Source: Escherichia coli (GTDB lineage: Bacteria; Pseudomonadota; Gammaproteobacteria; Enterobacterales; Enterobacteriaceae). Taken from it: a stretch of DNA of 64,000 bases. Below, in pieces: positions 45,367 to 46,570 of this stretch. The stretch lies in assembly GCF_003334385.1 (NCBI RefSeq), contig NZ_QOWN01000018.1. The stretch is one strand, 5' to 3'. The notes below the pieces were generated by a model, which did not search any database, was not told where the DNA came from, and saw only the letters and a list, made by a program, of their open reading frames with translations. The translations under genes were made by a program, and so were the position numbers. How positions within the stretch are numbered: position 1 is the stretch's first letter; each line of letters starts with the position of its first letter.

Positions 45367-45999
45367 TTATTTCACCAGTTCGGGCCATAAACGCAAAGTC
45401 GTTCCGGCAATCTGCATCAGTTTTTCCAGCGATGCACCTTCGCGTGCGCTGATCGACATCCCCTGAATAATACAATTAAGGAATTCTGCCAGATGTGTCA
45501 CGTCACAGTGGGGCGGGATTTCCCCGCGCGCTTGTCGTTGACATAAAAACTGCTGCAAAGTGCGCTCTTGCATCGCATGGCGTGATTTCAACGTATTGGC
45601 GATATCTCCTGAATCTGGGGAGAGGGTGGTGCAGTTGTTGATCATGAAGCAGCCTGCCGGGGTGTCTTTGCTGGTAAAGCAGTTGGCGATGGCAGCAAAA
45701 TAGTCAGCCAGCGCAGACTCCACGCTTTTCTCTTCACAAAACAGCTGTGCTTCATGCTTAGCGGCAAAACGATCGATATAGCGGTCGAGAACGGCACGAA
45801 ATAACCCCTCTTTGTTGGTAAATTCCGCGTATAGCGTGGGCGCTTTGGCTCCGGTCGCTTCGACGAGGTCCGCAAGAGAAGTCGCTTCATAACCGTGTTG
45901 CCAGAACAATTTCATGGCCTTATCAAGCGCGGCATCCCTGTCGAACACTTTTGGGCGGCCACGGCTTTTTTTTACACATTGTGTTGAGTCAGTTGCCAT
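45367..45999 (-). CDS. comR: TetR-family copper-responsive repressor ComR (YcfQ)
   Basis: ORF 45367-46077; start at MATDSTQCVKKSRGRPKVFDRDAALDKAMKLFWQHGYEATSL (TetR HTH), 210 aa. Confidence 0.9.
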   Translation of the reverse strand: MATDSTQCVKKSRGRPKVFDRDAALDKAMKLFWQHGYEATSLADLVEATGAKAPTLYAEFTNKEGLFRAVLDRYIDRFAAKHEAQLFCEEKSVESALADYFAAIANCFTSKDTPAGCFMINNCTTLSPDSGDIANTLKSRHAMQERTLQQFLCQRQARGEIPPHCDVTHLAEFLNCIIQGMSISAREGASLEKLMQIAGTTLRLWPELVK

Positions 46000-46154
46000 G
46001 ATGCCGTTGTACCTGGTGACTGTGAATGAAAGGTTATTATAAAAATAATCACCTCCGTTCACCAGTCCAGATCCCATAAAAATAATTGCTTTCTATTTAA
46101 CTGAAATTTAAAGATTTTTAAATTAATTAATGATTGTTATAAAAAATATCTTGT

Positions 46155-46172
46155 ATGTGATCCAGATCACAT
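46155..46172. promoter_or_regulatory. perfect 18-bp palindrome ATGTGATCcaGATCACAT in comR-bhsA divergent promoter region (candidate ComR operator and/or CRP-type site)
   Basis: Exact inverted repeat; TGTGA-N6-TCACA core matches the CRP consensus half-sites; lies between the divergent TetR-family repressor gene comR and its known target bhsA. Confidence 0.45.
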
Positions 46173-46239
46173 CTATCATTTAGTTATCGATCGTTAAGTA
46201 ATTGCTTGCGACGTCATTCATCTGCATAAGGCCACTATT

Positions 46240-46497
46240 ATGAAAAACGTAAAAACCCTCATCGCTGCGGCGATTTTAAGCTCCATGTCATTTGCCAGCT
46301 TTGCGGCTGTCGAAGTTCAGTCAACGCCAGAAGGCCAACAAAAAGTCGGTACAATCAGTGCTAACGCGGGGACAAATCTGGGATCGCTGGAAGAGCAGCT
46401 GGCGCAAAAAGCGGATGAGATGGGCGCAAAATCTTTCCGTATTACTTCTGTAACCGGTCCGAATACCCTCCATGGAACAGCAGTAATTTATAAATAA
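46240..46497 (+). CDS. bhsA: YhcN-family stress/biofilm outer membrane protein BhsA (YcfR/ComC)
   Basis: 85 aa ORF with signal peptide MKNVKTLIAAAILSSMSFASFA; divergent from comR. Confidence 0.92.
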   Translation: MKNVKTLIAAAILSSMSFASFAAVEVQSTPEGQQKVGTISANAGTNLGSLEEQLAQKADEMGAKSFRITSVTGPNTLHGTAVIYK

Positions 46498-46536
46498 GCA
46501 TTAACCCTCATTAATGCCTGCTACTGCTGATTTTTT

Positions 46537-46570
46537 CCCCGCGACATGCCGTGTCGCGGGGATTTTTTTA
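46537..46570 (+). terminator. intrinsic terminator after bhsA
   Basis: ccccgcgaca-tgcc-gtgtcgcgggg hairpin followed by atttttttat. Confidence 0.8.

Follow-up and report, generated by a model that had tools for sequence, protein, structure and literature searches.

Canonical CRP sites in Escherichia coli (consensus AAATGTGATCTAGATCACATTT; mtlA, galP and caiT are examples) have a TGTGA-N6-TCACA core, and in the canonical arrangement they lie at −41.5 or −61.5. CRP can also work as a repressor; at the CRP-repressed promoters gal P2 and cyaA P2 the CRP site overlaps the −35/−10 region, and CRP occupancy would exclude RNA polymerase. Operators of TetR-family proteins, exemplified by TetR/tetO and QacR/IR1, are found between divergent genes, with the dyad placed over the promoter of the target. 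MerR-type sensors, such as CueR at copA, employ a dyad between the −35 and −10 elements of a copper-responsive gene; promoters under MerR control typically have a spacer of 19-20 bp.

The region between the divergent genes comR and bhsA contains an inverted repeat that can be compared with each of these systems. This dyad is almost certainly a cAMP-CRP binding site. The explanation favoured here, which we hold to be moderately probable, combines repression by CRP from within the spacer of the predicted bhsA promoter with binding of ComR to an adjacent dyad. Coordinates are those of the window, i.e. the whole 64-kb stretch of DNA that was analysed.

45367-45999, minus strand: comR (ycfQ), encoding a TetR-family repressor of 210 aa.
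46036-46041, minus strand: TATAAT, candidate −10 element of comR, in an invariant block at 46035-46048 (each position conserved in 73-75 of 75 related spacers).
46155-46172, no strand: the reported dyad, ATGTGATC-CA-GATCACAT, corresponding to MG1655 1,168,988-1,169,005.
46240-46497, plus strand: bhsA (ycfR/comC), encoding a DUF1471 stress protein of 85 aa.

The locus is from E. coli, and its comR-bhsA spacer is identical to that of K-12 MG1655. The initial annotation had named the two genes as bhsA and the TetR-family regulator comR, and both identities hold: the BhsA open reading frame scores 137 bits against model NF047859, ComR matches the TetR family, and both names appear in the RefSeq annotation of the matching DNA in 5,423 of 5,426 complete E. 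coli genomes. The longest comR open reading frame starts with an ATG at 46077 and comprises 236 aa, 26 codons more than the annotated, conserved 210-aa form. Three lines of evidence place the start at 45999 instead: this is the annotated start of the 210-aa protein, all 80 ComR relatives align from its residue 1, and the extension (46050-46077) is not conserved in related spacers. The spacer is 240 bp long (46000-46239); the 162 bp given previously had been based on the longest open reading frame. Nor does the dyad occupy the middle of the spacer, as had been claimed: measured from its centre, the comR ATG is 164 bp away and the bhsA ATG 76 bp.

The dyad itself (ATGTGATCCAGATCACAT) is an 8+2+8 inverted repeat. 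It had been described as a perfect 18-bp palindrome; the sequence and the perfect complementarity of the 8-bp arms stand, but the central CA is not self-complementary, and 16 of the 18 positions are palindromic. The TGTGA-N6-TCACA spacing that had also been pointed out is exact, at 46156-46171. The dyad spans 68-85 bp upstream of the bhsA ATG, with its near end at 68 bp and its centre at 76 bp. The full pattern is unique in the 64-kb window, where 0.01 matches would be expected at up to two mismatches. Perfect inverted repeats with 8-bp arms and a spacer of 0-6 are less exceptional: the window contains 28, five of them with a spacer of 2, as against about six in shuffled sequences. Inverted repeats of this type are thus not rare, and what goes beyond chance is the match to CRP.

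Several other features of the locus may be recorded. Three GATC (Dam) sites fall within 34 bp (46159-46162, 46165-46168 and 46189-46192); of these, the last two are kept in 74-75 of 75 related spacers, and the first is largely specific to Escherichia (C46162 in 41 of 75). It is conceivable that bound CRP or ComR shields GATC sites from methylation. A/T blocks resembling (T)ATAAAAATAA occur as three conserved copies in the spacer (46039-46048, 46076-46085 and 46138-46147). A perfect inverted repeat, AATTTAAA-N4-TTTAAATT, is located at 46105-46124, and the adjacent TGAAA (46102-46106) is conserved in 64-75 of 75 spacers. A genomic SELEX study flagged binding of H-NS and of the RpoD holoenzyme in the comR-bhsA spacer. 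At the other end of bhsA, the small RNA BhsB, as annotated in MG1655, overlaps the 3′ end of the gene and its terminator (46470-46569; stem-loop at 46536-46562); an Rfam search of 46470-46569 gave sub-threshold matches only, and these were driven by the terminator.

The dyad falls within a longer element that corresponds to a complete CRP site.

46153-46174, no strand: cAMP-CRP site, GTATGTGATCCAGATCACATCT (22 bp), with its core at 46156-46171 and its centre at 46163.5.

This site agrees with the CRP consensus at 18 of 22 bases overall and at all 10 core bases. For quantitative comparison, a CRP matrix was built from 106 other 16-mers taken from CRP ChIP-seq peaks of enterotoxigenic E. coli (ETEC) H10407 (PMC4287617, Table 1), with the comR-bhsA site itself excluded. 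The dyad scores 21.28 out of a maximum of 21.83 bits, which is above all 106 training sites; the next-best score in the 64-kb window is 12.28 bits, 9 bits lower, and none of 200 shuffled sequences reaches 21.28 bits. Few E. coli sites come closer to the CRP consensus than this dyad. In the H10407 ChIP-seq data, this site appears in reverse complement (TGTGATCTGGATCACA) in the peak at 1274886, which is assigned to ycfQ/bhsA and has a fold-above-threshold value of 4 at the high-stringency cut-off (PMC4287617). PMC5521740 credits Zhang, Garcia-Contreras and Wood (2007) with a gel shift in which CRP bound DNA from upstream of ycfR, and in supplementary tables derived from RegulonDB 8.5, ComR has one site and one operon, while CRP and ComR are entered as a pair with one operon in common (PMC4280137). 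The earlier CRP reading is thus well supported, by a near-consensus matrix score, a published ChIP-seq site, a reported gel shift and catalogued co-regulation. Comparison with published binding data, which had been proposed as a check for both regulators, speaks for CRP (ChIP-seq peak, gel shift) and not for ComR, whose ChIP-exo data show no peak here.

Both CRP binding at this site and co-regulation by CRP and ComR are known and catalogued; it is an ordinary regulatory site in a well-studied genome. As side observations, other DUF1471 paralogues (ybiJ, yahO and yjfY) also have CRP ChIP-seq peaks (PMC4287617, Table 1), and a CRP-regulated DUF1471 gene occurs in Klebsiella as well; small DUF1471 stress proteins may be under CRP control as a family.

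Conservation across the Enterobacteriaceae was assessed by a scan for ComR in species-representative genomes, which yielded 80 loci; loci from Klebsiella and Salmonella enterica were added. The genera covered include Escherichia, Citrobacter, Enterobacter, Lelliottia, Leclercia, Kosakonia, Salmonella (S. arizonae), Yokenella, Siccibacter, Cedecea, Buttiauxella and others, and column counts are based on the 75 spacers with the divergent comR-bhsA arrangement. In every one of these 75, the best match to the CRP matrix occupies the equivalent position, at a distance of 76-84 bp from the bhsA start codon. The related sites have a median score of 19.6 bits (as compared with a median of 4.7 bits for the runner-up match elsewhere in the same spacer), and 74 of the 75 exceed the median of the ChIP-seq sites.

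The pattern within the element is instructive. G46157, T46158, G46159 and A46160 are conserved in 73-75 of 75 spacers, and the positions from G46165 to A46171 in 72-75, while 46161-46164 are free to vary. At the outer end of the left arm, A46155 is replaced by G in 61 of 75 spacers, whereas its partner T46172 stays T. Likewise, TC in the left arm (46161-46162) changes to CC, TG or CG, without a mirrored change in the right arm (46165-46166). Because the arm bases drift asymmetrically and only GTGA and GATCACA are constrained, the CRP core is to be regarded as the ancestral constrained element, and the perfect 8-bp arms as specific to Escherichia. Judged by the aligned sequences, this is the pattern of an evolving CRP site, conserved across at least 15 genera, and unlike that of a dimeric TetR operator with 8-bp arms.

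Further information comes from genomes with a different gene content. Four species have comR without bhsA, and in these both the CRP site and the neighbouring dyad (see below) are lost; only the comR-proximal block 46035-46048 is retained. The CRP site hence travels with bhsA, as it is missing from comR-bearing species that have lost this gene. The four loci (L058, L062, L072 and L073; upstream of comR, at about 1200-1500) belong to two Enterobacter sp., Pseudescherichia vulneris and Escherichia sp. ESNIH1; ComR in these species is either an orphan or directed at a different target. Loci with bhsA and without comR were also sought. Klebsiella and Salmonella enterica both have comR; E. fergusonii, which is reported to lack ycfQ, had no member in the cluster look-up.

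The location of the CRP site relative to the promoter suggests how it might work. Two elements that bracket its core stand out in the alignment.

46151-46156, plus strand: predicted bhsA −35 element, TTGTAT in Escherichia; in other genera TTGACG, at columns 46150-46155.
46174-46179, plus strand: predicted bhsA −10 element, TATCAT (T in 74, A in 75, T in 71, variable, A in 73 and T in 75 of 75 spacers).

The predicted −35 columns (46150-46155) are conserved in 61-75 of 75 spacers. A bracket of the form TTGnnn-17/18-TAnnnT surrounds the CRP core in 74 of the 75, most commonly as TTGACG-18-TATCAT; the promoter spacer measures 17 bp in 20 cases and 18 bp in 54. An A-tract (46140-46148) lies at the position of an UP element relative to this predicted promoter. 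The arrangement looks like a strong σ70 promoter whose spacer is filled by a CRP site, with a predicted start at about 46186 and the CRP centre at about −22.5 from that start. A simple promoter scan of the E. coli sequence did not call this predicted promoter, since TTGTAT matches at only three of six positions. The bhsA promoter predicted by Shimada, TTCACC-17-AATAAT, which the scan also returned, was rejected because its −35 element is not conserved in related spacers.

On balance, CRP probably binds within the spacer of the bhsA promoter and represses the gene. CRP bound between the −35 and −10 elements would most likely block RNA polymerase, so that bhsA would be held down at high cAMP and released with glucose. 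The ycfR deletion phenotype in Zhang's 2007 work was reportedly seen with glucose present, which fits repression by CRP.

Activation is less likely, although still credible. As a class II activator, CRP would be situated at about −42 to −43 relative to a start at about 46205-46207, with a weak −10 element, TAAGTA/TAAGTT, at 46195-46200. TAAGT(T/A) is well conserved (T in 75, A in 75, A in 75, G in 54 and T in 72 of 75 spacers), and the distance to the CRP centre comes near class II geometry; in the ETEC study, CRP sites were most often found about 40.5 bp upstream of transcription starts (PMC4287617). Against this, the spacing departs by 1-2 bp from the canonical −41.5, and the conserved TTGAC upstream and TATnAT downstream of the site would be left without a role. 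Moreover, TAAGT is part of a longer invariant dyad, and its conservation may reflect binding of a repressor instead.

This longer dyad is the second element of the favoured explanation, in which CRP represses from within the promoter spacer and ComR binds next to it. A partial second copy of its motif is found further upstream.

46177-46204, no strand: imperfect 28-bp dyad, with halves CATTTAGTTATCGA and TCGTTAAGTAATTG (82% complementary) and the core TATCGATCGTTAA at 46185-46197.
46128-46148, no strand: upstream partial second copy of the motif, with the consensus TAACGATCGTTATAAAAA and the E. coli sequence TAATGATTGTTATAAAAAATA, followed by an A-tract.

The 28-bp dyad begins 5 bp downstream of the reported one and overlaps the predicted −10 element and start point of bhsA. 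Each position of its core TATCGATCGTTAA is identical in 74-75 of 75 spacers, which makes this the most conserved stretch of the spacer. Its arms are also conserved symmetrically, as would be anticipated for a TetR-type operator; those of the dyad at 46155-46172 are not. According to the account of Mermod et al. [quoted passage not shown] The distance from the bhsA ATG to the left part of the 28-bp dyad is 60-63 bp. Its invariance, its overlap with the predicted −10 element and start, and its fit to the reported distance make it the preferred candidate, and it is probably the operator of ComR. ComR bound there would cover the predicted −10/+1 region and leave upon copper or other stress, and the bhsA promoter would thereby respond to two repressors whose sites abut.

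The upstream copy (46128-46145) has a consensus containing a perfect palindrome, TAACGATCGTTA, which is degenerate in E. coli (TAATGATTGTTA); an exact CGATCG is present in 11 of 75 spacers. It is possible that two operators flank the promoter.

ChIP-exo of ComR (YcfQ) in MG1655 gave three weak peaks, at cspA, metR and uxuA, and none in the comR-bhsA spacer; bhsA is the only established ComR target, and yet has no peak (PMC8464067). For either candidate operator, this absence is neither support nor counter-evidence. The coordinates of the three ChIP-exo sites were converted to NC_000913.3, and a motif common to them and the spacer was considered and discarded, as the only matches were at chance level (9 of 11 positions). 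A full-text literature search for TATCGATCGTTAA and variants returned no relevant mention. Among solved structures there is no complex of ComR with DNA, and the nearest homologue of ComR with a known structure is CifR from Pseudomonas (E = 5e-32).

A more elaborate relationship between the two regulators can be envisaged. CRP (about 46149-46178) and ComR (46177-46204) would occupy abutting or partly overlapping sites and interact sterically or cooperatively, so that bhsA would be turned on only when low cAMP coincides with copper or envelope stress; this logic would be conserved across the Enterobacteriaceae, in a strong promoter whose spacer is a consensus CRP site. In its extreme version, ComR may also touch the right half of the palindrome. 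In this full form the proposal appears rather unlikely. Two abutting sites for CRP and ComR are in any event possible, and likelier than competition of both proteins for the same site.

Such same-site competition had been put forward in the initial annotation, together with the suggestion that the dyad is the ComR operator; we consider it improbable that the dyad is either an operator for ComR or one shared with CRP. An 8+2+8 repeat near the target of a divergently transcribed TetR-family repressor is plausible as an operator, even though this is a weak criterion given how common such repeats are. ComR does bind somewhere in the comC promoter fragment, as far as the account in PMC10141476 goes, and RegulonDB places both regulators on the operon. 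However, the arms are not conserved as arms and the CRP core alone persists; the dyad, whose near end is 68 bp and whose centre is 76 bp away from the ATG, also disagrees with the reported 60 bp. A better candidate directly adjoins it, and ComR ChIP-exo has no peak here. The proposed ComR operator at the dyad is consequently not supported, and no evidence was found in favour of competition at one shared site.

It is similarly doubtful that the CRP site mainly serves comR, activating this gene when glucose runs out. A microarray study found ycfQ up-regulated in glucose-limited and stationary cultures, and the ChIP-seq table assigns the CRP peak to both genes (PMC4287617). The rise of ycfQ under glucose limitation could indeed stem from CRP acting also on comR. 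Yet the candidate comR −10 element is about 134 bp away from the centre of the CRP site; relative to the invariant TATAAT, the site would be at about −134, well beyond the positions from which CRP usually activates. Inspection of the sequence by eye revealed no good minus-strand −10 element at class I or class II distance, and the species that keep comR without bhsA have lost the CRP site.

Although inverted repeats with 8-bp arms are fairly common in the window, a chance repeat, or an RNA hairpin or terminator without a DNA-binding role, is hardly conceivable: the element is conserved in at least 15 genera with a CRP pattern and occupied by CRP in vivo (PMC4287617), and an RNA structure was ruled out by its weak fold (−5.6 kcal/mol, z = −1.0, no T-run) and the lack of an Rfam match.

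Within E. coli, the 60-bp core of the region (46146-46205) is identical in 5,261 of 5,424 genomes, and for a larger region of 341 bp only 4,065 of 5,425 genomes reach 99% identity. Strain E69 has a change at the centre of the dyad (TGTGATCAAGATCACA) that leaves the CRP core intact. Strain P276M (NZ_CP044293.1; locus L094, 201-264) is the sole genome among the 5,424 with less than 95% identity over the 60-bp core. It reads TGTAGAGAAGTCCGTTCACA, in which the left CRP half-site is destroyed; a 4-bp insertion is found in the predicted promoter spacer, and the CRP-matrix score drops to −3.3.

The gene concerned is strongly induced by stress, and affects biofilm formation, copper permeability and the attachment of pathogens to produce. 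A top-ranking genomic CRP site beside a probable ComR operator would explain the effect of glucose on the bhsA phenotype, and would make the bhsA promoter a clean two-input promoter, usable in reporter design. Current understanding is unchanged: both CRP binding and ComR control of bhsA had been published and entered in RegulonDB.

How, then, does the comR-bhsA spacer relate to the described systems? With canonical CRP sites, the bhsA site has the exact TGTGA-N6-TCACA core in common, and it also matches the T:A and G:C flanks of the inner GATC repeats; like them, it is occupied in ChIP-seq, keeps its half-sites and varies at its centre. It differs in being closer to the consensus than all 106 ChIP-seq sites in the matrix, and in its predicted location, which falls within the core promoter and not at −41.5 or −61.5. 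In this respect it resembles gal P2 and cyaA P2, where the CRP site likewise overlaps the −35/−10 region; at bhsA, the 16-bp CRP core would fill the 17/18-bp spacer almost exactly, with repression as the presumed outcome. As for TetR-family operators, the spacer separates a divergent gene pair and has a dyad over the target promoter, but the operator-like evolution is seen in 46177-46204 and not in the reported palindrome. Finally, the placement of a dyad between the predicted −35 and −10 elements of a copper-responsive gene recalls MerR-type systems (CueR at copA). A MerR-type spacer operator was nevertheless rejected: the promoter spacer at bhsA is 17-18 bp rather than 19-20 bp, the sequence is that of the CRP consensus, and the neighbouring regulator belongs to the TetR family.
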